A DNA stretch of 64,000 nt, taken from Acidimicrobiia bacterium. Lineage in GTDB: Bacteria; Actinomycetota; Acidimicrobiia; Spongiisociales; Spongiisociaceae. A program made the position numbers and the translations under genes. Below the pieces are notes generated by a model. It had not been told where the DNA came from, did not search any database, and was given only the letters and a program-made list of their open reading frames with translations. This document shows, one piece after another, positions 3,212-60,510 of the stretch. The stretch covers positions 1 to 64,000 of the forward strand of contig JBFGLM010000025.1 of NCBI GenBank assembly GCA_041576165.1, given 5' to 3'. The first letter of the stretch is position 1. Each line of letters begins with the position of its first letter.

Positions 3212-5128
3212 ATGATATTCCGCCGCTCGACCTTCGTCGCGCTCATCATCTCCGCCCTCTTCGTGGTGGGGAATCTCGAGATCCGGGCCGTTCCTCCAGA
3301 GGCGTCTGCCTGGTCGTTTCCGCTGGGATTCCAGGAATCGAACGCCTCGCACCTGTGGGAAACCGATGCCATTCGGGCCGATGTCACGCTGGCGGGTATC
3401 TCCTGGGAGCAAAAGCCGCCCCGAGCCGCATGGGTGCGGGGCAGCATGGACGGTGAGGTGTGGTCTGACTGGGCGGCGCTCGTGATCGAAGCCGAGCACG
3501 GACCGGATCCTGGGACCGACGAAGCCCGGGCCACCAATCCGGCCAGTGAGCCGGTCTATCTCGGTGAGGTCCGCTGGATCCAGTTCCGCATCGACGGACA
3601 GCCCGGCGAGCTCGAGGCGCACGTGGTCGAGACCGCAGGTCGTCAGCGATCGCTGCTCACCCGTGTGACCGACGCGTGGCGCCGAATCGCCTGGCGAGAA
3701 CCGTCGGCGGGTGCGGCGCCGGGTCAACCCGACATCATCAGCCGGGACGTATGGGGCGGTGATCGTTGCGTGGGAGACAAGGAGCCTCCCGGTCTCACCG
3801 ACGGGGTTCGGGCCATGTTCATCCACCACACGGCGACCGCCGGCGCCTATTCGGAAGCCGCGGCCCCTGACGTTGTCTATGCCATCTGCAATTACCACGC
3901 CAACACCAGGGGCTGGAAGGACATCGGCTACAACTTCCTCATCGACGTGTATGGCAACATCTACGAGGGTCGAGCCGGGGGAGTTGATCAACCGGTGTGG
4001 GGGGCCCATACGGGCGGGTTCAACTACTACTCGTTCGGGGTCGGGCTCATCGCCGATCACAATGTCTCGTCTGTGGGCGCAGCTGCCCAGCTGTCGCTGA
4101 TCGAGCTGGCCGCCTGGAAGCTCGACATCCACCATGTCGATCCGTCGCAGGCGATCACGATCGAATCGCTGGGATCCACCCGCTATGACCAGGGCGTCAT
4201 CGTCGACATGCCGACGGTGGCCGGGCACCGCGACGCCTCGTCGACCTCGTGTCCGGGGAATCTTTGTTACCCGTTGCTGGGGGGCTTCCGCACATCGTTC
4301 CAGGAGACGGGCGGCGCGAAGATATACGGCACCGGACCCGAGACTGCCCCCGTGCCGCTGGGCCCCACGACGTTCTCCTTCACGATCACCGAACCCGCCG
4401 ACTGGCATTTCCGGCTGTTCGACGCCAACGAAGAGATGCTGCTGGATGAGAGCGGAAGCGGTACCGACGTATCGATTCCGTGGGACGGCCGCATCGCCGG
4501 TGAACTCATCGAGCCGGGTGACTACCGGGTGTCCTTCACCGCTGTGACCGGGACTGGAGAGGTCCCCCGGCCCGTCGACCAGGTGATCACCTGGTATAGG
4601 GCACCGTTCCGCGATGACGACACGTCGGTACATGAGACCTCGATCAACACCATCGCTGCCCAGGGCATAACCCAGGGTTGCAGCACGTATTTCGATTGGT
4701 GGTTCTGCCCCGACGACGAGGTGCCCCGCGATCAAATGGCGTCCTTCATTGCCCGCGCGTTGGGGTTGGCCGACAGCGACAGCGATCGATTCAGCGATGA
4801 TGACGGGAACGTGCACGAGGGCGCTATCAATGCACTCGCCGACGCCGGTATCACGGTCGGGTGCAGCAGCGGTGGTGGCTACTGCCCCCGGCGATCGATT
4901 TCTCGAGCCGAGATGGCCACGTTCTTGTACCGGGCGCTCGATTTGCAACCGGCCGGCTCAGACTATTTCATTGACGATGACAACAACCCCCACGAGACGG
5001 CGATCAACGCCATCGCGGAACTGGGGGTGACGCTCGGATGCGGAGGGGAGCGTTTCTGTCCCAATGACCCTGTGATGCGCGCCCAGATGGCGAGTTTTCT
5101 CGACCGGGCGTTCATCTCCGGACCGTGA
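3212..5128 (+). CDS. N-acetylmuramoyl-L-alanine amidase (Amidase_2/PGRP-like) + FlgD-like Ig domain + 3 SLH repeats
   Basis: FIHHTAT, GWKDIGYNFLID, GAHTGGFN and GHRDASSTSCPG Zn-amidase motifs; WDGR..GELIEPGDY; three SLH repeats. Confidence 0.92.
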   Translation: MIFRRSTFVALIISALFVVGNLEIRAVPPEASAWSFPLGFQESNASHLWETDAIRADVTLAGISWEQKPPRAAWVRGSMDGEVWSDWAALVIEAEHGPDPGTDEARATNPASEPVYLGEVRWIQFRIDGQPGELEAHVVETAGRQRSLLTRVTDAWRRIAWREPSAGAAPGQPDIISRDVWGGDRCVGDKEPPGLTDGVRAMFIHHTATAGAYSEAAAPDVVYAICNYHANTRGWKDIGYNFLIDVYGNIYEGRAGGVDQPVWGAHTGGFNYYSFGVGLIADHNVSSVGAAAQLSLIELAAWKLDIHHVDPSQAITIESLGSTRYDQGVIVDMPTVAGHRDASSTSCPGNLCYPLLGGFRTSFQETGGAKIYGTGPETAPVPLGPTTFSFTITEPADWHFRLFDANEEMLLDESGSGTDVSIPWDGRIAGELIEPGDYRVSFTAVTGTGEVPRPVDQVITWYRAPFRDDDTSVHETSINTIAAQGITQGCSTYFDWWFCPDDEVPRDQMASFIARALGLADSDSDRFSDDDGNVHEGAINALADAGITVGCSSGGGYCPRRSISRAEMATFLYRALDLQPAGSDYFIDDDNNPHETAINAIAELGVTLGCGGERFCPNDPVMRAQMASFLDRAFISGP

Positions 5129-49031: not shown

Positions 49032-50909
49032 TCAGCTGTGTGCCCGTTCTCCGTCGACCGAGTCGGGCCGTGATTCGGCCTGGCCGGTTCGAGATTCGAC
49101 GGTGTCCGCCATCGGCGCGTCGCCACGCAGGTCGATGATCTTGTCGGCGGCCGCGCCCGGCGCGTGGCTGGCTTCAGCCTCGTCGATCACGGCCACGATC
49201 TGCTCGTCAATCAGCTCTTCGCGCTCCAGCAGCGCATCCCGCAAGGCTTCGACCAGGTGCCGGTGATGGCTGAGCAGCCGGGTGACCTCGCGTTTGTTGT
49301 CGTTGAGGAGTTCATTCACCGCGTCCCGCCCGGAGCTGTCCGATAGCACTTTGGCTGCGAGATTGCCCGACAGGGCCCCGCCGTCAAGTGCTCGGTAGCT
49401 GATCAGCGAGGCGCCCAAACCGAGCGAGCCAACCATCTCGACGGCAATGTTGGTTGCGCTGGCGAGGTCGCCGGCCGGCCCGGTGCCCGATTCTCCGTAG
49501 AACAGCTCCTCGGAGACCATTCCGCCGAGTGCGATCTGCAGCAGCGCCACCAACTCGCTCTTGCGCTGGGTGTGCCGCTCCTCCTGCAGGCGATGTGCCA
49601 GGAATCCCAGGGCTTCCCGCCGTTTGATGATCGAGAGCATCTCGAGTTTGCGCCCTTTCCCGACCAGGTAGGCGACGGTGGCATGGCCGGCCTCGTGGGT
49701 GGCGATGATTTCGGCCTCTTCCGGGGGATAGTCAATAGGCTCGGGGAGGCCAATCTCGATCTCCGTGCGGGCCTGACGAAGGTCTTGCATGTTGAACCCG
49801 GACCGGCCGTCACGCAGCGCCAGCAGCAGGGCCTCGTCGAAGAGCCGCTCGATCGACGCCGGAGTGTGACCCATTGTGGCGGATGCCAGATCATCCCGGT
49901 TCTTCTGGAGATCCATCTCGGGATCGTGGGCCTTGCGCCGCAGGAAGTAGTCGATCAGCTCCAGCCGCGAATGGCGGCCCGGTAGGTCGAAATGGAGAAT
50001 TCGGTCGAAGCGGCCCGGCCGGAGCAGCGCCGGGTCAAGTGAGCTGGCCCGGTTGGTGGCGCCGATGAGCAGCACGTTGTTGTACGGTGGTTTGGGTTTG
50101 CGCCACTGGCGGTGCGCCGGCAGGAACAGATTCACGAAATCGGTGATCCGCCCGACGATGCGCTCGGTTGAGGTTGGCTCGTCGAAGCTCTGCATCTGGA
50201 TCAGCAACTCGTTTACCTGGCCGCTCGTGTCCGACGATACGGTCTGGTTCACAGCGTGACCGAAGGCCTGGTCCCCCGATATACCGCTGCGCGTCAAACC
50301 GATGGCATCGATCTCCTCGATGAAGCCGATTGCCCCGCCTTCCTTGCGAGCTGCTTTGCGCAGCGCCCGGAAGAAGGACTTCACGCGCCGGGCGGTCATG
50401 CCGTACCACATGGACTGAAAGGCGGTCGCCGACACGAACAGGAAAGGAATTTCTGCTTCCTTGGCCAGAGCCTTGGCCAGGTGTGTCTTGCCGGTCCCTG
50501 GAGGTCCTTCGAACAGAACCCCCCGCCGGGGCTGGCCGCCCAGCTCTTCTCGAAACTTCTGGTGATCGAGCATCACCCGCAGCGTGTGATCCACCTCGTC
50601 GACCACCCGCCCCAGCCCGACCACATCGCTGAATCCAACCTCGATCTGTTCCGGCTGGTATGTGATGTGGGGCGACCGGCTGTTGGTCAGCATCGGCAGC
50701 ACCAGCACGAGCCCGAGCAGCACAACGATCGCGATGGCCGGCAGCCAGAATACCGCCTCGTCGCTCAGCTGAGGCATGCTGGGCCAGGGGTTGGTGCCCC
50801 CCGCCACCCTGATCCACATCCATAGCGCAATGAGCCCGAGGAGGGTGACCAGTCGCCATAACCGTTTCCGGCGTACTCGTTCGCGCTTGACCGAAACGGT
50901 TGTGTCCAT
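49032..50909 (-). CDS. FtsH-like AAA+ Zn metalloprotease paralog
   Basis: Two TMs; GPPGTGKT, Walker B FIEEID, ATNR..LDPALLRPGRFDR, HEAGH. Confidence 0.9.
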   Translation of the reverse strand: MDTTVSVKRERVRRKRLWRLVTLLGLIALWMWIRVAGGTNPWPSMPQLSDEAVFWLPAIAIVVLLGLVLVLPMLTNSRSPHITYQPEQIEVGFSDVVGLGRVVDEVDHTLRVMLDHQKFREELGGQPRRGVLFEGPPGTGKTHLAKALAKEAEIPFLFVSATAFQSMWYGMTARRVKSFFRALRKAARKEGGAIGFIEEIDAIGLTRSGISGDQAFGHAVNQTVSSDTSGQVNELLIQMQSFDEPTSTERIVGRITDFVNLFLPAHRQWRKPKPPYNNVLLIGATNRASSLDPALLRPGRFDRILHFDLPGRHSRLELIDYFLRRKAHDPEMDLQKNRDDLASATMGHTPASIERLFDEALLLALRDGRSGFNMQDLRQARTEIEIGLPEPIDYPPEEAEIIATHEAGHATVAYLVGKGRKLEMLSIIKRREALGFLAHRLQEERHTQRKSELVALLQIALGGMVSEELFYGESGTGPAGDLASATNIAVEMVGSLGLGASLISYRALDGGALSGNLAAKVLSDSSGRDAVNELLNDNKREVTRLLSHHRHLVEALRDALLEREELIDEQIVAVIDEAEASHAPGAAADKIIDLRGDAPMADTVESRTGQAESRPDSVDGERAHS

Positions 50910-50973
50910 GCCGCTACCTTTCGCTGAGCGGGTGCCCGGCTGCGATGTCGTACCCGATTCGTAGCCTTCTCCC

Positions 50974-51543
50974 ATGATATGCGGGATTTGTAGTAAATGT
51001 CACAAAGACGCCAATTTGAGTTGCGGCGTTTGCGACCGGTGCGCGCGATCGCTTCGGTCTGGCCATGATCGGATCGTCGACGACCTGCTCGTACGCCCTG
51101 CATTCTTACACGACGATGTAATCCGTGGGCTCGTACATCGTCTCAAGTACTCGGCGTTGGTGGACCTGCCCCCGCTTGTGATCGGGGCCATGGCGAGCCG
51201 GGTGCCCCCCGACACCTCGGCGCTGATTCCGATCCCGCGGGCAGTTGCGCGAACGCTGCGATACGGCGTCGACCCGGCGTTGGTACTGGCCGAGGCGCTG
51301 AGCCGCGTCACCGGCATCCCGGTGTTGCCGGCACTCTCCGTGCCGCTCCTGGCGGCCAGCCAGGCACGGCGGGGGCGACAGCGGCGGCGAGATCCGGTGT
51401 TGCGGGCCGTCCGTTCAGTGCCGCCCGGGGCGGTGATCGTCGACGATGTCGTCACCACCGGACGGACCCTGGGCGCGGCCCGGCACGCGCTCGGTCACGC
51501 GGCCAGCCTGGCCGTCACCCTCACAACATCCGTGCGGCGTTAG
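50974..51543 (+). CDS. comF: ComF-family phosphoribosyltransferase-like protein
   Basis: N-terminal Cys cluster; HRLKY; IVDDVVTTGRT; sits upstream of hpf. Confidence 0.85.
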   Translation: MICGICSKCHKDANLSCGVCDRCARSLRSGHDRIVDDLLVRPAFLHDDVIRGLVHRLKYSALVDLPPLVIGAMASRVPPDTSALIPIPRAVARTLRYGVDPALVLAEALSRVTGIPVLPALSVPLLAASQARRGRQRRRDPVLRAVRSVPPGAVIVDDVVTTGRTLGAARHALGHAASLAVTLTTSVRR

Positions 51544-51559
51544 TAGAGTCTCGCACAGG

Positions 51560-51633
51560 GATGGACAACTGATCGCTGGCGCAGGTGGTACGGCTTCGCA
51601 ACACGTGTCAGGGATGTGTGCGGAAGGTCCATC
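51560..51633 (+). promoter_or_regulatory. Structured three-way-junction leader between comF and hpf
   Basis: TAGAGT -10 at 51544-51549; GATGGAC/GTCCATC closing stem; hairpin TTCGC-A-ACACGT/ATGTGT-GCGGA. Confidence 0.45.
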
Positions 51634-51660
51634 ACTCAGCCAGGGAAAGGAGCCGCAACA

Positions 51661-52209
51661 ATGGACGTGCGCGTACACGGTAGGAACCTGCACATCGGCG
51701 ACCGACTTCGATCGCACGCAGAGAAGAAGGTTTCGCGTGCAGCGCGGTTTTTCGATCATGTCGGCGACGCCGAAGTCGAGATCATCGAGGACCCCAACCA
51801 GCGCAACTCAGCCGGCCGGTTCTCGGCCAAGATCAGCGCCCCCGCCGCGGGCCACATCGTGCGCGGAGAGTCCGGAGGCGAATCGGCTTTCGCCGCGGTC
51901 GACAAAGCAGTCGATCGGTTTGGTCAGAATCTCAGCCGCTTGCACGACCGCCTGGTAGATCGCTCGCGCAAGGGCAGCAAGAAAGACCTCAATGTCACTA
52001 GTCCTCGCGCCGATGAAGATAGTCCAGAGGGTATTGAAATCGTCAGGGTGAAACAGTTCGTGATGAAGCCCTTGACGCCAGAGGATGCAGCATTGCAGAT
52101 GGAACAACTGGGACATAGCTTTTTCTTCTTCCTCAACGCCGAGACAGGTGTGCAGTCGGTGCTGTATCGCCGTCGCGACGGAAGACTGGGACTGATCGAG
52201 CCGGCATGA
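51661..52209 (+). CDS. hpf: Long ribosome hibernation promoting factor (RaiA/HPF)
   Basis: VHGRNLHI..LRSHAEKK; C-terminal IVRVKQF..KPLTPEDA.LQMEQLGHSFFFF..VLYRRRDG; RBS AAGGAG. Confidence 0.95.
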   Translation: MDVRVHGRNLHIGDRLRSHAEKKVSRAARFFDHVGDAEVEIIEDPNQRNSAGRFSAKISAPAAGHIVRGESGGESAFAAVDKAVDRFGQNLSRLHDRLVDRSRKGSKKDLNVTSPRADEDSPEGIEIVRVKQFVMKPLTPEDAALQMEQLGHSFFFFLNAETGVQSVLYRRRDGRLGLIEPA

Positions 52210-52856
52210 CGCGAGTGATCGTCGTGGACGACGCGCCGCTCTTCCAAGCGGGAATAGCGGCTGCGCTCGAGAACGCCGGCTTCGAAGTCGTCGGCCAGGC
52301 TGACGACGCCATGCGGGCCGTGGCGGAATCGAAGCGCCTGCAGCCGGACGTTGTCGTCCTCGACGTCCTCATGCCAGGCCTCTCGGGACTCGACGTCGTC
52401 GACAAGATCGTCGACGCGGTGCCGCACACCAAGGTCGTATTGCTCACGGCGTCCGAATCGGAAGAAGATCTGTTGTCTGCGATCAAGTCAGGTGCCTCCG
52501 GATACGTGGTCAAGGAGACCCCACTTCCGCAGCTCGTGGCAGCGATCGAAGACGTGATCAAGGGGGGAGCGGTGATTTCGCCGCTCATGGCGTCCAAACT
52601 GTTCAGGAATGTGCGCCAACTGCTTCGACATCGCGACATCGTCGCCGGGCGGCGTCCGACGCTGACCGGGCGCGAGGTCGAGGTGTTGCAGCTGGTCGCC
52701 CAGGGGATGACCAGCCGTGAAATCGGAGAGAAGCTCTTCATCTCCGAAAACACCGTGAAGAACCACGTGCGTAACATCCTCGACAAGCTCGGCCTCCACT
52801 CCCGGAGTGAAGCGGTGATGTACGCGCTCCGGGAGGAACTGATCTCCATCGACTGA
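52206..52856 (+). CDS. NarL/LuxR-family response regulator (no kinase gene in window)
   Basis: VVDD, LDVLMP, LLTAS, VVKE; LTGREVEVL..ISENTVKNHVRNILDKL. Confidence 0.95.
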   Translation: MTRVIVVDDAPLFQAGIAAALENAGFEVVGQADDAMRAVAESKRLQPDVVVLDVLMPGLSGLDVVDKIVDAVPHTKVVLLTASESEEDLLSAIKSGASGYVVKETPLPQLVAAIEDVIKGGAVISPLMASKLFRNVRQLLRHRDIVAGRRPTLTGREVEVLQLVAQGMTSREIGEKLFISENTVKNHVRNILDKLGLHSRSEAVMYALREELISID

Positions 52857-54739
52857 TGTCGGCGACGACCGAGGCCGCGGCCGCGGTGGTCGATGCACTA
52901 GGTGCAGCTTGGTCGATCCATGCGCTCTACCCGGATCCCCTCGAACAGCCGGCGTTTGTCAGGTCCGTGGACGCAATCAGAGAGGTTGCCGGTGAGGCGT
53001 TCATCGTCAACGTCACGCCCGCGGGATTCTTCCACGACGGTGAGCCGCTCGAGGATGTCCGGGGCAGCGCCGGCCGCCTCGCCAAGCGGCTGTTCGTGCA
53101 GAATGTGGACACGCTCGAGGTCACGGGCATGCCCACCGAGCGGGATGTCGTCCGCTTCTTCGATCTGCTGGCCCGCGATGAGCAGGATGTAACCGCCGGC
53201 GGAGGCGTCGGGGCGGCCCTCGCCCGGGATGGAGTCACCTCCTTCGCGGTGAGCGACCGGGCGCCGCTGGCCGAATCGACCGAACTGAGCGGCACCGAAC
53301 GGGACGAAAAGGTCGACTCGATCCTTGCCCAGGGCAGCGACCCCGAGGCCTTCGCAGCAGACCTCACGGCCCAGGGTGGAGGCGACCCGGCCACCGTCGC
53401 CAAGCTGGTGCACAGCAGCTACATCGAGATCATGGGATTGATCGACCCGGAAGACGTCGCCGGCGGGGAAGCTGCAGTCAAAGCCTTCGTCGAAGCGTTC
53501 TTCCACTTCGACGAGCCGATCCAGCAGGCAGTCCTGGAGCAGTTCCTGCAGGAGCACTCATCTCCGGTCGTACGGCCGTTCCTCGACCAGTTCGCCAGCC
53601 ACGAGCTGGTGGAGTTCGCGCAGCAGCTCGACCCACAAGGCTTTTCGCTGCTCATGAGCTATGCGGAGATCGTCACCGACCCCGAAGCCGACGGCCGCTC
53701 GCAGGATCTGCTCTCACTGCTCCAAGCACCCCAGCGGGTGAATACGGCGAGGCAGGCGATTGCCAGCCAGATCGAGAGCCGCTTCGGGACTTTCGACGAC
53801 CGTCCGCAACGGGTCGACGTCGCCATCCCGGACCCCGGCCGCTTCTTCTTCACAGTGCTCGATGCCTTCCGGGATCTGCTCGATGTAGAAGAACGACCGG
53901 AGAGATTCCGCCGGGTCCTCCGCATCTGGTCGGGAAAAGTCAAGAGCGCGATACGCCGGCAGGAGATCAGACGGGCCGAGCTGTGGCTGCGAGCGATCAG
54001 CGACAACCCGACCTACGAACGCCACTGGCAGGCGGATGTCGACCGGGCCGTCGAATCCACGATCACCGACGAGTTGTTACGCCAGCTCTTGGCGACCAGG
54101 GACGCCAACGAGTTGCTGGCGGCCGACGTCGATCGGTTCGTGCAGGTGGCGGGCGATGCTGCCGTCCGACCGCTGATCACGATACTGGCAGAAGGAGACG
54201 CCGCATCGCGACGCCCCGTGATGGAACTGCTGGCGATGGTGGCGCCTCGGCATCCCGAGCCCATTGTGAGTTCGGCCCGTGAGGCGCCGTGGTACCTCGC
54301 CCGCAATCTGGCCAGCGTGCTGCGGCGCGCCAAAGTCGAGGCGGCGGCTTCCTTGATGCGGGAGCTGATCGTTCATGCCGATGAACGAGTGCGGGTCGAG
54401 GCCGTTCGGGGCCTTGCGGTCCTGGGAACGCCCACCGACCTCGAGCTGATCGCCGATCGCCTGGCCGACGAGGACGATGCTGTTCGCTCCACCGCCCTCA
54501 CCGTGCTCGGCACCAGCTCGCATGAAGGCGCCGAGGAGATTCTGGTCGAGTCCATTTCATCCTCGAAGCTCAGCACCGCGCAGCGGGCGCGGGCGATCGA
54601 GCTTCTCGGCCGTCAGCCCACGGACGAGACGCGAGCTTTGCTGGAACGACTGGCCCACCGTCGCATTGCGTTGACAGGCACTGCGCGCCAGATCCGGACC
54701 GCAGCACGAAGAGCCCTAGGGGAAGGCGCAAAGACATGA
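52856..54739 (+). CDS. HEAT-repeat protein with unannotated N-terminal LYP domain
   Basis: C-terminal repeats PWYLARN, DERVRVEAVRGL, DDAVRSTALTVLG; TGATG overlap with the RR. Confidence 0.85.
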   Translation: MSATTEAAAAVVDALGAAWSIHALYPDPLEQPAFVRSVDAIREVAGEAFIVNVTPAGFFHDGEPLEDVRGSAGRLAKRLFVQNVDTLEVTGMPTERDVVRFFDLLARDEQDVTAGGGVGAALARDGVTSFAVSDRAPLAESTELSGTERDEKVDSILAQGSDPEAFAADLTAQGGGDPATVAKLVHSSYIEIMGLIDPEDVAGGEAAVKAFVEAFFHFDEPIQQAVLEQFLQEHSSPVVRPFLDQFASHELVEFAQQLDPQGFSLLMSYAEIVTDPEADGRSQDLLSLLQAPQRVNTARQAIASQIESRFGTFDDRPQRVDVAIPDPGRFFFTVLDAFRDLLDVEERPERFRRVLRIWSGKVKSAIRRQEIRRAELWLRAISDNPTYERHWQADVDRAVESTITDELLRQLLATRDANELLAADVDRFVQVAGDAAVRPLITILAEGDAASRRPVMELLAMVAPRHPEPIVSSAREAPWYLARNLASVLRRAKVEAAASLMRELIVHADERVRVEAVRGLAVLGTPTDLELIADRLADEDDAVRSTALTVLGTSSHEGAEEILVESISSSKLSTAQRARAIELLGRQPTDETRALLERLAHRRIALTGTARQIRTAARRALGEGAKT

Positions 54740-56070
54740 GTGAGCCGCTGATCAAACAGACGCTGGCCGGTTTACGCGGCGCAGTGACGCAGCTGGCCTT
54801 GTATCCGGCAGAGCATCCGGCCGTGGAGGGGTCCATCGAACGGGCCGCATTTGCGGCGTCCAGCTTGGTGGAGCACGCCGGAGAGACGGTGCTCACGATC
54901 ATGGGCGACTCGCTTTACCACGACCAGCGCCTCCTGGCGCACACCTCGCTGGAGTTCAACGGGTTCTTCCGAACCATGCAGGCACGGGGAATCGACTCGC
55001 TCACCTTTGACGGATTCGTTTCCCGGGCCGACGTGCGAGACCTTGCCGAATTCCTGGCAGGACGCATATCCGATGTCCCGGCGGAGGGGACAATCCGGCT
55101 GAACGACTCACCCTTCACCAGCGCCGAGCTGACGGCGAGCGGTGAGATCTCAGGTTTGCGGCGCAACTACGCCCGGTCACTCGATGTTCTGCGTGGGATA
55201 GGTCAAGCGATGCGCGGCGGCCAGGATTTCGACTTGAGCGGCGCCACCATGATCGTCGAACAACTGGTCGAACAGACGATCTCCCAGCCGGGAGCCAGCG
55301 TGCTGCTGGCGTCGATGAAGTCGCACGACGAGTACACCTTCTATCACTCCGTCAACGTCTGCATCCTTGCGATTGCGCTCGGCCGGAGGGTGGGGCTCGA
55401 CGAGCAAACCATCGGCACGATGGCGCTGGGTGCGTTGCTGCACGACATTGGCAAGCTAAGGGTCGCGTCGTCGATACTGCAGTACCCCGGCCGGTTGGAC
55501 GCCGAACAGTGGGCCGAGATCAAACTCCATCCCCAAGAGGGAGCCACTGCCATCCTGGCCGCCGCCGCTCCGGGACAGGAAGTGGCAGCGATCGTCGCGC
55601 TCGAACACCATCGCCGGTTCGATGGCGCGGGCTACCCCGTCCCGTCAAGGGTGCGCGAACAGCATTTGTTTTCTCGGGTTGTCACCGCCGCGGACGTCTA
55701 CGACGCCTTGACCACCCGCCGGTCATACCGGCGGGCGGACACACCTCACCAGGCGATCGAAGTGCTCCGCCAGGGAGCCGGTGGCCACTTCGATCCGATC
55801 ATGGTGGACCAATTCATCGGTTTTACGGGCGTATACCCTCCGGGATCGTTTCTTCGTCTCGAGGATGGGCGGGTGGCGATGGTCACGGTGAACGTCGCCG
55901 GAGAACAGCCGGAAGGATTGGTCGTGCGAACGTCGACGGGAGAGGAGCTGGCCGACCCCGAACCCGTGCGCATCGACCTCGACCGGCCGTTCACCCACCT
56001 CACCGTGGCGGAGGCCGGCATCGACCCTGCCTCCCTGCTCGAAACCGTAGCCGCCGCGCCGGTCGCCTAG
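54736..56070 (+). CDS. HD-GYP phosphodiesterase (cyclic-dinucleotide hydrolase)
   Basis: HSVNV, LLHDIGK, IKLHPQEG, EHHRRFDGAGYP, ADVYDALTTRRSYR; ATGA overlap with the HEAT gene. Confidence 0.93.
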   Translation: MSEPLIKQTLAGLRGAVTQLALYPAEHPAVEGSIERAAFAASSLVEHAGETVLTIMGDSLYHDQRLLAHTSLEFNGFFRTMQARGIDSLTFDGFVSRADVRDLAEFLAGRISDVPAEGTIRLNDSPFTSAELTASGEISGLRRNYARSLDVLRGIGQAMRGGQDFDLSGATMIVEQLVEQTISQPGASVLLASMKSHDEYTFYHSVNVCILAIALGRRVGLDEQTIGTMALGALLHDIGKLRVASSILQYPGRLDAEQWAEIKLHPQEGATAILAAAAPGQEVAAIVALEHHRRFDGAGYPVPSRVREQHLFSRVVTAADVYDALTTRRSYRRADTPHQAIEVLRQGAGGHFDPIMVDQFIGFTGVYPPGSFLRLEDGRVAMVTVNVAGEQPEGLVVRTSTGEELADPEPVRIDLDRPFTHLTVAEAGIDPASLLETVAAAPVA

Positions 56071-56138
56071 GTCCTGGTCAATGGTCCGGCTGAGACCCGG
56101 GCTTCACTAAGTCCCGGTACAGATAGGATGACCCCACC

Positions 56139-58790
56139 ATGTCGCTAGTCAAGAAGGTCTTCGGGGCGGGTGAAACCAAGCTGATGAAAAACCTCGCGGC
56201 TGTTGTCGACGAGGTGAACGCGCTCGAAGCGTCGATTCAGCCGCTCACCGACGGGCAACTCCGTGCGAAGACCGAAGAATTCCGCAAACGCCTGGCTGAT
56301 GGCGAGACACTGGAAGACATCTTGCCGGAGGCTTTCGCCGTCGTTCGGGAAACCGCCACGCGGGTGCTGGGACAGCGGCACTACGACGTGCAGGTGCTGG
56401 GGGCGGTGGCTCTTCATCGCGGGATGATCGCCGAGATGCGGACCGGTGAGGGAAAGACCCTCGTGTCCACCATGCCCGTCTACCTCAATGCGCTGGCGGG
56501 CCGCGGCGTCCACATTGTGACCGTGAACGACTACCTGGCATCTCGCGATGCGGATTGGATGGGAGGGATCCACCGCTTTCTTGGGCTGACGGTGGGACTC
56601 ATTCAGGCTGGTGACGACCCCCGGGCACGCCGACCGGCCTACGAGGCGGACGTCACCTACGGAACCAACAACGAGTTTGGCTTCGACTATCTGCGCGACA
56701 ACATGGCGATGCGGACCGAAGATCTGGTGCAGCGTGGTCATCACTACGCCATAGTCGACGAGGTCGACTCGATCCTCGTCGATGAGGCCCGCACGCCGCT
56801 CATCATCTCCGGCCGGGTTGGGGATACCGCCAAGTGGTATCGCGACTTCGCCAAGATCGTCAACCGTCTGCGCAGAGACGATCACTACATCGTCGACGAG
56901 GCCAAACGCCAGGTCCTCACTACCGAGGATGGCGTTGGTCGGGTCGAAGAGATCTTGGGCATCGAGAACATGTACGACCATGCGGCGGTTGACTTCGTCC
57001 ATCACCTCGAGCAAGCGTTGCGGGCAAAAGAGCTCTACCAGGACGACGTCGAGTACATCGTCGACCACGGCGAGGTCAAGATCGTCGACGAGTTCACCGG
57101 ACGTGTCCTGGAAGGACGGCGCTATTCGGAGGGTCTCCACCAGGCGATCGAGGCGAAGGAAAACGTCCAGATCAAAGAGGAGAACCAGACCCTCGCCACG
57201 ATCACGTTGCAGAACTACTTCCGGATGTACGAGAAGCTGGCGGGCATGACGGGAACCGCCCTCACTGAGGCAGCCGAGTTTTCTCAGATCTACGGCCTCG
57301 AGGTTGTCGAAGTTCCCACCAACCAACCCATAGCTCGAGTTGACCAGCCGGACGTCGTCTACAAGACCGAGGACGCCAAGTTCGACTCGCTGGTAGAGGA
57401 CATCGTCGAGCGCTATGAGAACAACCAGCCGGTGCTGGTCGGCACAGTCTCAATCGAGAAGTCTGAGAAGTTGAGCAACATCCTGCGCCGGCGGGGAATA
57501 CGACATGAGGTGCTCAACGCCAAGCAGCACTTCCGGGAAGCCGACATCATCGCCCAGGCCGGCCGCCCCGGGGCGGTGACCGTCGCGACGAACATGGCGG
57601 GCCGCGGTGTGGACATCGCGTTGGGCGGCAACGAGGATGGCTTGGCCAAGGCCGAGCTGAAGAAGCGTGGCCTTTCGCCCGACGACGACGGGTATGAGCA
57701 GGAGTTCCAGGCGTTCGTGCAGGAACTCGAAGCCGAGATCGCACCCGCCCGCCAGCAAGTGATTGCTGCGGGCGGGCTCTACGTGCTCGGTACGGAGCGC
57801 CATGAGAGCCGGCGCATCGACAACCAGCTGCGGGGACGTTCGGGCCGCCAAGGCGACCCCGGTGAGTCGCGGTTCTACCTATCGCTCGAAGACGAGTTGA
57901 TGCGGCGGTTCGCTTCGGAGCGCGTTGAGGCGATCATGGATCGTCTCCGCATCCCCGACGATGTGCCGATCGAGGCCAAGATGGTCTCCAAGGCAATCGA
58001 GCGGGCGCAGTCCCAGGTCGAATCCCGCAACTTCGAGATCCGCAAGAACGTTCTCAAATATGACGAGGTGATGAACCGCCAGCGTGAGGTGATCTACGCC
58101 TGGCGCAACGGAATCTTGCGGTCGGCCGAGAGCCGCGAGTTGGTAATGGAGTGGATCGACCAGGCGATTCCCGACGCCGTCTACGCGGTGATACCGGAAG
58201 GCGCGGCGCCTTCCACCTGGGATTGGGAGGAGATCCGCCAAGAGCTCTCTCAGATATTCCCCACCCATCTGGGACCGGATTCGGTGGACGCTTCGGCTGG
58301 CCTATCAGCCGAAGCCCTGGCCGGGGCCGCGGTCGAAGAAGCAGTCACGGTCTACGAGAAGCGCGAGGCAGAGTTCGGCGCAGAAGTACTACGGGCCATC
58401 GAGCGCCGCATCATCCTTTCGATCATTGACAACAAATGGCGTGAGCACCTTGCGGAGATGGACTATTTGCGGTCCGGTATCGGGCTGCGAGCGATGGGAC
58501 AGCGCGACCCGCTCACCGAGTATCAGCGAGAGGGCTATGAGATGTTCTCGGAGCTGGTCGCCAGCGTGAAGCGCGACGCGCTCCGTTACTTGTTCCATGT
58601 CGAGGTGACGCAGGCGCCGGCGCAGCCGCAGCGACCAACGGTGGTGACCGCCAGCGGTAGTGGTCAAACCAAACGCCAGGCCCAATCGAACAAAGTCGGA
58701 CGCAATGCTCCCTGTCCGTGCGGCTCGGGCCTGAAAGCCAAGAAGTGTTCCAACACACCAACGTGTCTGGGCAGCGACAAGGTTTCTTGA
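56139..58790 (+). CDS. secA: Preprotein translocase ATPase SecA
   Basis: [62 protein letters not shown]. Confidence 0.98.
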
Positions 58791-58834: not shown

Positions 58835-59275
58835 GTGCGGGACAAAATGTCCGCCGCGCCTGGCGCGGCGGTGCCTTCGGAGGCGTCTATCCGGATCTGG
58901 TGCAGCGCATCACGGGACGCCCTTCCTGTGGTCGATGACGAAACGTTCGAGGCGCTCGTTGACGCCCTGGGTGAGCCTGATGCCGTTGCATCGGTATTGC
59001 GGATGTACTTGGCAGACCTGCCTGGTTTCGTCGGCACGATCAGATCCGTAGCACCTGATGTGCACGAGGAGGCCCGGGCGGCCGCCCATCGCCTCAAGGG
59101 GAACGCAGGGATGCTGGGTGCGCTGGCGCTCTCCGACGCCTGCCGCAGGTTCGAGACGGCCATCCGAGATCGAGAATTCGAATCGTTACCGGCGTTGAGC
59201 GCCGAGGTCTTGGAGGCGTCTGAAGCCGTCGCCGAATGGGTGCGGCAACGCCTCGGCCAGGGACGGGCCCGCTAG
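58835..59275 (+). CDS. Stand-alone Hpt (histidine phosphotransfer) protein
   Basis: AAHRLKGNAGMLGALALSDACRRFE Hpt signature. Confidence 0.88.
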   Translation: MRDKMSAAPGAAVPSEASIRIWCSASRDALPVVDDETFEALVDALGEPDAVASVLRMYLADLPGFVGTIRSVAPDVHEEARAAAHRLKGNAGMLGALALSDACRRFETAIRDREFESLPALSAEVLEASEAVAEWVRQRLGQGRAR

Positions 59276-59387
59276 CGACGGGTTGGGCGGCCGCCGAGCC
59301 TGGAGCCCTGCGGGTGTCGGCACCGGTTCGAGGTTGTACAGCTGAGTCCCGCGAAGGTCGTGCCACGGTCCGCTACCCTGACGGCGT

Positions 59388-60510
59388 ATGCACCACGAGG
59401 ATCCCCGCGCCGTCATCAAAGATCTCCGGGTACGGCTCAGCGATGCCAGGAGGTTCCTTTGACGTCGATGCCAAAGAAACGGAACTAGCCGAGCTTCGCG
59501 AGCTCGCGGCAGATCCCGGGCTGTGGGACGATCCGGAAAGAGCCACTGACATCACGCGCAAGCTGTCGCGTTATGCAGACATCGTGTCCCGGGTCGGCCG
59601 GCTCGCCGCCACCCTCGACGACGCCGAAGTCCTGTTGGATTTGGCCGACGAGGAGAGCGATGCAGAGACCCGGTCAGAGGTGGTCGAGAGTCTGAGCGAA
59701 ACCGACCGCGAATTGCAGGCCGTTGAGATCGAGTCCTTGTACTTCGGCGAGTACGACGACCGCCCGGCCATCGTGAGTGTGCATGCCGGGGCCGGCGGTG
59801 TGGACGCGCAAGACTGGGCCGAGATGATGTGGCGGATGTACACCCGATACTTCGACGGCGAAGGCCTCCGCTACGAGATCGATGAAGTGTCCCCGGGGGA
59901 GGAGGCCGGTATCAAGTCGGTCACCATGACCGTCGACGGTCCGTACGCCTACGGCCGCCTCGAGGGCGAGCGAGGGGTTCACCGCCTCGTACGGATCAGT
60001 CCGTTCGATGCCAATGCCCGCCGCCATACCTCGTTCGCGGCGGTCGACGTGATCCCGCAGGTGGATGATGCCGAGATCGAGATCAACACGGATGAGCTGC
60101 GGATCGACACGTTCCGCTCCCAGGGTGCCGGTGGCCAGCATGTCAACACCACCGACTCGGCGGTACGGATCACGCACCTGCCCACCGGGGTAGTGGTGGC
60201 ATGCCAGGCGGAGCGTTCCCAGATCCAGAACCGAGCCCGAGCCATGACGATGCTCAGAGCAAAGCTGGCCGACCTGGCCCGTCACGAGCGCCAGCGCGAG
60301 TTGGACGAGATACGGGGGGAGCAGAACGAGGCAGCCTGGGGCCGTCAGATTCGCTCATACGTGCTGCAGCCCTACCAGATGGTCAAGGACCTGCGCACCG
60401 ACTTCGAGGTCGGCAACGTGCAGGCTGTCCTGGACGGCGCGATTGGTCCCTTCAGCGAGTCATACCTACAGTGGCGGCGCGCACGCCGCGAACAGGCCGG
60501 CGCTGCGTGA
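59388..60510 (+). CDS. prfB: Peptide chain release factor 2, made by programmed +1 frameshift
   Basis: ATG 59388 gives MHHEDPRAVIKDLRVRLSDARRFL-TGA; the +1 frame continues DVDAKETE...ISPFD...GAGGQHVN. Confidence 0.96.
59448..59463 (+). other. prfB +1 frameshift cassette
   Basis: AGG AGG TTC CTT TGA C: internal SD, 3-nt spacer and CTT-TGA-C slippery stop. Confidence 0.95.

Follow-up and report, generated by a model that had tools for sequence, protein, structure and literature searches.

What does a HEAT-repeat protein do when its gene is coupled to that of an HD-GYP phosphodiesterase, and does such a pair belong to ribosome hibernation? The question is raised by a stretch of DNA from a bacterium of the Acidimicrobiia (positions 1 to 64,000 of contig JBFGLM010000025.1, GenBank assembly GCA_041576165.1; the whole 64,000 nucleotides are called the window here). 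In the window, genes for a hibernation promoting factor (hpf), a response regulator (RR), a HEAT protein and an HD-GYP protein form a string ahead of secA. Cyclic di-GMP (c-di-GMP) phosphodiesterases fall into two classes, of which the HD-GYP proteins have been understood less well, and little is known of their regulation outside the Proteobacteria. A first-pass annotation of the window had claimed that the two large proteins share an unannotated N-terminal domain, and had proposed that these paralogous domains heterodimerise, with the HEAT scaffold gating the phosphodiesterase in connection with ribosome hibernation. The analysis described below indicates that the conserved unit is the HEAT-then-HD-GYP pair of Actinomycetota, not its link to hpf. 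The probability that the pair encodes a phosphodiesterase for c-di-GMP together with its own partner subunit is put at roughly 60%.

Results

The N-terminal domains (N-domains) of the HEAT partner and the HD-GYP protein are homologous. BLASTP between the two proteins is weak when taken alone (27% identity over 135 residues, E 0.005 in a single comparison), and an initial hhalign comparison, based on alignments of lower diversity, reached a probability of just 84%; both results would suit a resemblance due to chance or composition between unrelated domains. That explanation is largely refuted and hardly credible any longer. The first-pass annotation had suggested a pairwise alignment of hidden Markov models (HMMs) as a check. 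With 18 HEAT and 17 HD-GYP N-termini from the window and related loci, hhalign returned a probability of 92.5% and an E-value of 5e-7 over 112 columns (7-118 against 5-120), as opposed to 0.6% when the target was reversed and a maximum of 1.4% (minimum E 0.036) in 30 column shuffles. Each family is also recovered with the HMM of the other: the HEAT-type HMM, although built from Acidimicrobiia only, detects the N-termini that downstream HD-GYP genes encode in other classes (E-values per genome of 2.4e-10 to 8.1e-4), and the HD-type HMM matches HEAT partners at 1.6e-8 to 1.9e-4. The similarity between the two proteins stops at the end of the N-domain. Within the domain, which spans ~120 residues and is referred to below as 'LYP', the order of predicted secondary-structure elements is the same in both proteins, and the best-kept positions across 101 domains of all architectures are L15, A18, L24-Y25-P26, P32, G116 and L122 in HEAT numbering. 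The signature L-Y-P...P lies between the first two helices and is 75-93% conserved in this set. In one related locus (L021:5975-6050) the N-terminus of the HEAT gene lies in another frame and the alignment breaks before residue ~26, the result of a frameshift or an assembly error; the L021 row was omitted from alignments A3 and A5.

The N-domain matches no family in Pfam or NCBIfam in either protein, which bears out its unannotated status. The AlphaFold2 (AF2) model of the HD-GYP N-domain is alpha/beta, with a predicted local distance difference test score (pLDDT) of 90.8 and a predicted template modelling score (pTM) of 0.86. In the AF2 models of both proteins two long helices are followed by a beta hairpin to which a short third strand is added, then helix, strand, helix and strand; in the HEAT version (aa-bb(b)-a-b-a...b) the last strand is preceded by two additional short helices. 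When the PDB was searched with the model of the HD-GYP N-domain, the top Foldseek row had an E of 0.58; the top VIA-align wide row reached Z 6.2, covering 64 residues of a helical hairpin, and 1 of 48,161 chains had Z>=5. The modelled domain thus appears to have no convincing fold match in the PDB, from which a new fold does not follow. DUF3391 (PF11871) was considered as a known counterpart. Residues 1-190 of the window HD-GYP protein gave no hmmscan match to it at E<=10, although a remote homology beyond the reach of HMMER may exist; among 13 N-terminal pieces a single relative matched at E 0.41, over the linker only, and PF11871 was found in none of the genome of the window and 14 control genomes. 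ESM Atlas listed DUF3391 at rank 3 with a score of 0.77 for the HD-type domain. For the HEAT-type domain it listed unnamed clusters from Thermodesulfobacteriota and Gemmatimonadota, with scores of 0.87-0.89; all of these leads score below 0.9 and were not used as evidence.

The two genes are almost always paired in the Acidimicrobiia that carry them. With a single genome taken from each species, a scan for related loci found 24, which all belong to Acidimicrobiia. For as much of the locus as their contigs cover, 23 of the 24 have the order comF-hpf-RR-HEAT-HDGYP-secA-prfB, and the remaining locus is a diverged HEAT and HD-GYP pair in another setting. An even sample of 401 Acidimicrobiia genomes contained the HEAT-type N-domain in at least 33 and the HD-type in at least 37, all of them in six families of the order to which the window belongs. 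An HD-type match lies 1.7-2.0 kb downstream on the same strand for 37 of the 39 HEAT-type matches; of the two unpaired matches, one lies in a gene truncated where its contig ends and the other is a 26-residue fragment. The pair has also been duplicated as a unit, giving secA-HEAT-HD-HEAT-HD-prfB in one locus (L043) and two pairs flanking secA in another (L050). In the window, direct reading of the DNA gives an ATGA overlap between hpf and RR (52206-52209) and a TGATG overlap between RR and the HEAT gene (52854-52858), and the open reading frame (ORF) coordinates give an ATGA overlap between the HEAT and HD-GYP genes (54736-54739). Start/stop overlaps of 4 nt or 1 nt are also kept in related loci. 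Both the string of stop-to-start overlaps and the coupling of the two genes had been claimed at first pass, and both hold, the pairing being near-obligate. In three fetched loci of one family (f3) the order is comF-hpf-RR-[short HEAT]-HDGYP-secA. The match of the short partner to the HEAT family is confined to the C-terminal half (profile positions ~303-629); its N-domain is missing, as is the first half of the helical region. Some f3 genomes carry a second, full-length HEAT and HD-GYP pair elsewhere (L047, L049).

The pair extends to other classes of the phylum. A survey of 401 Actinomycetota genomes, which includes two flagged as unpublished (G483 and G649) on which no conclusion rests, found the HEAT-type N-domain in at least 43 and the HD-type in at least 49. 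The stretches fetched from outside the Acidimicrobiia, 16 loci of 15 genomes, hold 18 pairs in the order HEAT then HD-GYP. The neighbouring genes are related neither to one another nor to hpf or secA, and include genes for Fe-S proteins, a histidine kinase, GGDEF-EAL, Maf, UPF0182, MFS, Rrf2/IscS/NifU and GatC. Clusters that contain proteins of the pair have members under the NCBI names Coriobacteriia, Anaerosomatales, Parvivirga hydrogeniphila, Candidatus Solincola and Actinomycetota, which are annotated as HD-GYP, HD or hypothetical protein only. GGDEF genes were present in all five of the pair-bearing genomes checked. Two loci (L032 and L038) have second pairs with degenerate HD-GYP motifs, such as GHP for GYP. 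A GGDEF-EAL protein (L032:1044-2669, plus strand) lies ~0.6 kb from one of the two pairs in a locus of the Coriobacteriia type; the HD-GYP protein of that pair has partly degenerate motifs.

The N-domain also occurs in other architectures. An exhaustive HMMER search with the HEAT-type N-domain matched 744 clusters (50% identity) at E<=1e-3 and 178 at E<=1e-10. Among the best 150 clusters, 148 were N-domain plus HEAT proteins, shorter N-terminal pieces and a few longer proteins in which only the N-region was matched (P0224, P0242, P0278), and an HD-GYP domain was found in none of these 148. Fusions of GGDEF (motif AGDEF), a STAND-type AAA_16 ATPase, the N-domain and HEAT repeats, 1278-1390 residues long, were found in 3 loci and 8 protein clusters; two of them (L056 and L057) lie no more than ~6-8 kb from a HEAT and HD-GYP pair. 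The survey of architectures and pairing advised in the first-pass annotation thus places the domain and the pair in several classes and adds architectures to those of the window. In a tree of 98 N-domains (quick IQ-TREE maximum-likelihood search) a single branch with SH-aLRT support of 95 separates the partner type from the rest, which comprises the HD-GYP type, the GGDEF fusions and long solo proteins; inner branches are weak, as expected of a quick search with a short domain. Since both sides of the tree hold the same lineages, an old duplication followed by joint inheritance would fit the partner and enzyme N-domains.

The HD-GYP protein retains the residues expected of an active enzyme. 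HD_5 (PF13487) matches residues 196-354 with 74.3 bits against a cut-off of 27.2 and is matched in 44 of 44 homologues, and residues 193-365 align to solved HD-GYP enzymes at E-values of 1.7e-38 to 1.8e-09. Neither Pfam nor NCBIfam has a family that matches residues 1-190 or 366-444. An intact GYP loop and intact metal ligands had been described, and indeed H204, H236-D237, K240, H265, H291-H292 and the motif G299-Y300-P301 are all present, in columns that are invariant among the 44 homologues; D323 does not vary either, and the conservation of D320 is 90% or higher. Judged by these residues, the protein appears to be a catalytically intact phosphodiesterase, most likely acting on c-di-GMP.

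The upstream partner has no recognisable catalytic domain. HEAT_2 (PF13646) matches its C-terminal third with 40.8 bits against a cut-off of 27.7 and was matched in 18 of 18 homologues, HEAT_PBS (PF03130) was matched in 10 of the 18, and a sequence search of the PDB aligned alphaRep/HEAT chains over residues 437-606. Residues 1-430 match no family in Pfam or NCBIfam. The AF2 model of residues 1-432 has a pLDDT of 84.1, and the Foldseek rows for this model were all weak and ARM/HEAT-like, with E 0.018 at best. A degenerate HD domain was rejected as an explanation of the helical middle region, because full-length hhalign finds similarity to the HD-GYP protein in the N-domain alone and no second similar region. 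Among the PADLOC defence models the HEAT partner matches a generic HEAT-ARM row (6.2e-05) and the HD-GYP protein none; the other matches are generic helix-turn-helix rows.

To judge from gene order, the pair is inserted behind hpf and an orphan NarL-type regulator inside an older comF-hpf-secA-prfB cluster. Two genomes of the family to which the bin is assigned (G366 and G378) have comF-hpf-secA-prfB with neither regulator nor pair. In a genome from another family, comF-hpf-RR is separated from secA by a GNAT gene and an ABC transporter on the opposite strand, and there is no pair; the claim that hpf, RR and secA occur in this order without the pair is thus exemplified in one relative. These pair-less relatives suggest that hpf-secA is the older frame, that RR joined hpf independently and that the pair was added behind them in some families. 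The pairs of L050 and L043 lie between secA and prfB or beside comF, with no hpf or RR hit. In the Acidimicrobiia lineage of the window, the position of the pair behind hpf suggests that it is probably co-expressed with hpf.

The source of the contig is less certain than its gene order. The bin (G000, in which the window is contig C25) consists of 161 contigs and is 7.5% contaminated; at 5.1 Mb it is about double the size of its relatives, and none of five sampled genomes of the same family has a HEAT-type or HD-type N-domain match. The family label of the contig is therefore doubtful, and the contig may come from another lineage of Acidimicrobiia than the label says.

The remaining features of the locus are collected in Table 1. 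Hpf is of the long form, with PF02482 (54.7 bits) followed by the C-terminal dimerisation domain PF16321 (80 bits). Its ATG at 51661 is preceded by GGAAAGGAG, and an alternative GTG start lies at 51616. The RR matches Response_reg (93 bits, 1.7e-26) and GerE (79.9 bits, 1e-22); all NCBIfam equivalogs (NarL, MadR and others) fell below their cut-offs, so no named orthologue was assigned. A promoter and terminator scan of 50900-56400 gave counts not above those of shuffles. The Hpt-domain protein and the orphan NarL-type regulator are a hint of a phosphorelay around the comF-hpf-secA-prfB cluster. In most related loci the FtsH-like protease gene is likewise found divergent from comF and next to it. 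In the prfB ORF, the first ~50 residues are unmatched in relatives, and tblastn matches mostly begin at query residue 38-67; this would be consistent with a later start or with the usual prfB +1 frameshift upstream.

Table 1. Positions of the genes and protein regions discussed, in the window unless a locus is named
Feature	Position	Strand	Basis or remark
FtsH-like AAA+/M41 protease, unusual N-terminal region	49032-50975	-	divergent neighbour of comF
comF-like gene	50974-51543	+	window ORF
hpf (long-form hibernation promoting factor)	51661-52209	+	Pfam Ribosomal_S30AE and Ribosom_S30AE_C; heads overlapping gene string
RR, NarL/LuxR-type	52206-52856	+	receiver domain and GerE helix-turn-helix
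HEAT protein, 627 residues	52856-54739	+	Pfam HEAT_2 only
N-domain of HEAT partner (residues 1-135), partner-type 'LYP'	52856-53260	+	hhalign to HD-GYP N-domain; no Pfam match
All-helical middle region of HEAT partner (residues 151-432)	53306-54151	+	AF2: 16 helices, mostly high pLDDT; no Pfam match
PBS-lyase-type HEAT repeats of partner (residues ~437-610)	54164-54685	+	Pfam HEAT_2
HD-GYP protein, 444 residues	54736-56070	+	Pfam HD_5/HD only
N-domain of HD-GYP protein (residues 1-130), enzyme-type 'LYP'	54736-55125	+	AF2 model; no Pfam match
HD-GYP catalytic domain (residues 193-365)	55312-55830	+	Pfam HD_5 1.3e-20; aligns to 4mcw, 5z7c, 4r8z
C-terminal extension of HD-GYP protein, ~79 residues	55831-56070	+	no Pfam match at E<=10; conserved in 44-sequence alignment
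secA	56139-58790	+	starts after 68-nt gap downstream of HD-GYP gene
Hpt-domain protein, 146 residues	58835-59275	+	Pfam Hpt 2.4e-13; between secA and prfB
prfB	59236-60510	+	ORF overlaps end of Hpt ORF
Short f3 partner	L041:6908-7963	-	
Short f3 partner	L042:4147-5223	+	
Short f3 partner	L048:~3920-4753	+	
GGDEF-AAA_16-N-HEAT protein	L055:4021-8193	-	
GGDEF-AAA_16-N-HEAT protein	L056:3623-7459	-	
GGDEF-AAA_16-N-HEAT protein	L057:10495-14343	+	

Discussion

It seems likely that the HEAT protein is a sensing, regulatory or targeting subunit of the phosphodiesterase encoded behind it. The partner is a non-catalytic protein built of the N-domain, a predicted helical solenoid and PBS-type HEAT repeats, translationally coupled upstream of the enzyme, and its N-domain and HEAT repeats would form an input unit acting on the HD-GYP protein. 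Contact is probably made through the related N-domains, through the conserved C-terminal half of the partner, or through both. STAND ATPases carry sensor repeats after an effector and the nucleotide-binding oligomerization domain; a sensing role of the partner is favoured because the GGDEF-STAND fusion places the N-domain and HEAT repeats where such sensor repeats usually stand. The link to c-di-GMP is drawn because GGDEF is fused to the same unit and GGDEF genes accompany the pair in the genomes checked. From the homology, the pairing, the translational coupling, the intact site and the GGDEF fusion we infer a physical complex, its substrate and a direction of regulation.

Several observations weigh against the view that the HEAT protein is a dedicated subunit of a c-di-GMP phosphodiesterase. 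The genome surveys scored 10 candidates per genome, which makes their tallies lower bounds; one genome (G561), for example, has the pair and yet gave no HD-type match. In the class sample, 11 of 48 HD-type matches have no HEAT-type N-domain upstream, ten of them in family f3. In all three f3 hpf loci that were fetched, a partner of ~355 residues without the N-domain lies directly upstream of the HD-GYP gene, whose product retains its conserved N-domain. Because the partner has lost this domain there and the enzyme keeps its own, contact between the two N-domains cannot be the only or obligatory interface. The existence of this variant also means that the conserved C-terminal half of the partner must matter and that the N-domain of the enzyme has a role of its own. 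Proteins of ~790-860 residues with the N-domain and HEAT repeats occur with no HD-GYP gene in the fetched stretch (L035, L058-L060). As to the enzyme, a glutamate of the window protein is shifted by one residue in the HMM alignment relative to the glutamate of 4mcw, which we take to be a third-metal ligand, and the precedent of 5z7c is that HD-GYP enzymes elsewhere also hydrolyse 3'3'-cyclic GMP-AMP (3'3'-cGAMP).

Two of these points are also what an arrangement without a complex would predict. The N-domain could bind the same ligand or third protein in both proteins, which would be co-expressed and act separately, with a distinct output for the HEAT protein. The retention of the enzyme N-domain where the partner has lost its copy, and the N-domain plus HEAT proteins that lack an adjacent HD-GYP gene, would agree with such parallel sensing, as would the GGDEF-AAA_16-N-HEAT fusions, in which the same unit stands at what is presumably the STAND sensor position. 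Mere parallel sensing is nevertheless rather unlikely when set against the tight 4-nt or 1-nt overlaps that are conserved, the duplication of both genes as one unit and the presence of the same lineages in both N-domain clades; the overlaps, the joint duplication and the shared lineages fit better with a stoichiometric complex than with mere co-regulation, although they are not proof of one. The enzyme might alternatively hydrolyse 3'3'-cGAMP, c-di-AMP or pGpG instead of c-di-GMP, or serve as a nucleotide receptor. The HD-GYP profile also matches the cGAMP-specific V-cGAP3 (5z7c), several HD_5 paralogues per genome could share out substrates, and the second pairs of L032 and L038 have the degenerate motifs described above. 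Such a departure from c-di-GMP is nonetheless unlikely in view of the fusion of GGDEF to the N-domain and HEAT unit, the GGDEF genes in five of five genomes and the intact metal ligands and GYP motif of the window protein.

The original proposal can be read as a dedicated ribosome-hibernation device, in which the HEAT scaffold gates the phosphodiesterase through an N-domain heterodimer with an output on Hpf and the ribosome. The part of this proposal that concerns gene order stands: hpf, RR, HEAT and HD-GYP genes overlap in the window, and the same order recurs in 23 of 24 related loci. The part that would make hibernation a property of the module does not. The genes around the pair in other classes are unrelated ones, so the hibernation link is a feature of the operon in one lineage; L050 and L043 hold pairs beside secA and prfB or comF with no hpf or RR hit, the older comF-hpf-secA-prfB cluster exists without the pair, and so does hpf-RR. 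A literature search found nothing that joins HD-GYP with hibernation promoting factor. A dedicated hibernation device is quite improbable on this evidence. The preferred reading, a phosphodiesterase with a partner subunit, can be combined with the local context in a tentative way. 'LYP' would be a new input and dimerisation module for c-di-GMP enzymes that exists as two ancient paralogous types, one of the partner and one of the enzyme. The copy of the partner would replace a subunit of the HD-GYP homodimer to give an N-domain heterodimer, and the HEAT solenoid would turn the enzyme on or off upon binding a protein or ligand. In Acidimicrobiia, where the pair would be wired to hpf, c-di-GMP would be cleared as ribosomes hibernate or wake. 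This joint reading is possible but, taken as a whole, doubtful.

Irrespective of the hpf context, the analysis defines a domain family without a Pfam or NCBIfam model that occurs on HD-GYP phosphodiesterases, on a GGDEF-STAND fusion and on a HEAT-repeat protein. It also defines a near-obligate, translationally coupled enzyme-partner pair across several classes of Actinomycetota, which is likely a new way to control the breakdown of c-di-GMP. Natural variants, namely the partner that lacks the N-domain, the tandem duplicated pairs and the GGDEF fusion, are ready tests of how the pair works. The biochemistry need not rest on metagenomes alone, because the cultured Parvivirga hydrogeniphila is named among the cluster members.

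Comparison with known systems

The titles and abstract openings of the literature on HD-GYP with HEAT repeats mention no such pair. One article (PMC6205966) gives the HD-GYP proteins of Streptomyces as 6TM-HD-GYP, an architecture unlike that of the window protein. Many proteobacterial HD-GYP proteins carry DUF3391 in the same place ahead of the catalytic domain as the window N-domain; the N-terminus of the window protein differs in that it gave no hmmscan match to DUF3391 at the threshold used. In PmGH of Persephonella marina (4mcw), PA4781 (4r8z) and Bd1817 (3tm8) an input domain is likewise followed by HD-GYP. The window N-domain differs from theirs in that it matches no Pfam family, and the fold searches listed none of these structures. 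To our knowledge, none of the three enzymes has been described with a dedicated partner that bears a paralogous N-domain.

The GGDEF-AAA_16-N-HEAT relatives share the layout of STAND ATPases such as the MalT-like and LAL regulators, with the N-domain and HEAT repeats at the sensor position. The window pair has no ATPase, and the comparison only suggests that the N-domain and HEAT repeats are an input unit. V-cGAP3 of Vibrio cholerae (5z7c), to which the catalytic domain of the window protein aligns at E 9.4e-34, also combines a catalytic HD-GYP with a related non-catalytic module. Its HD-GYP modules stand in tandem and the degenerate first module regulates the second, so that the paralogy lies in HD-GYP and within one chain. 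In the window pair, by contrast, the paralogy lies in the N-domain, with none beyond it, and is spread over two proteins.

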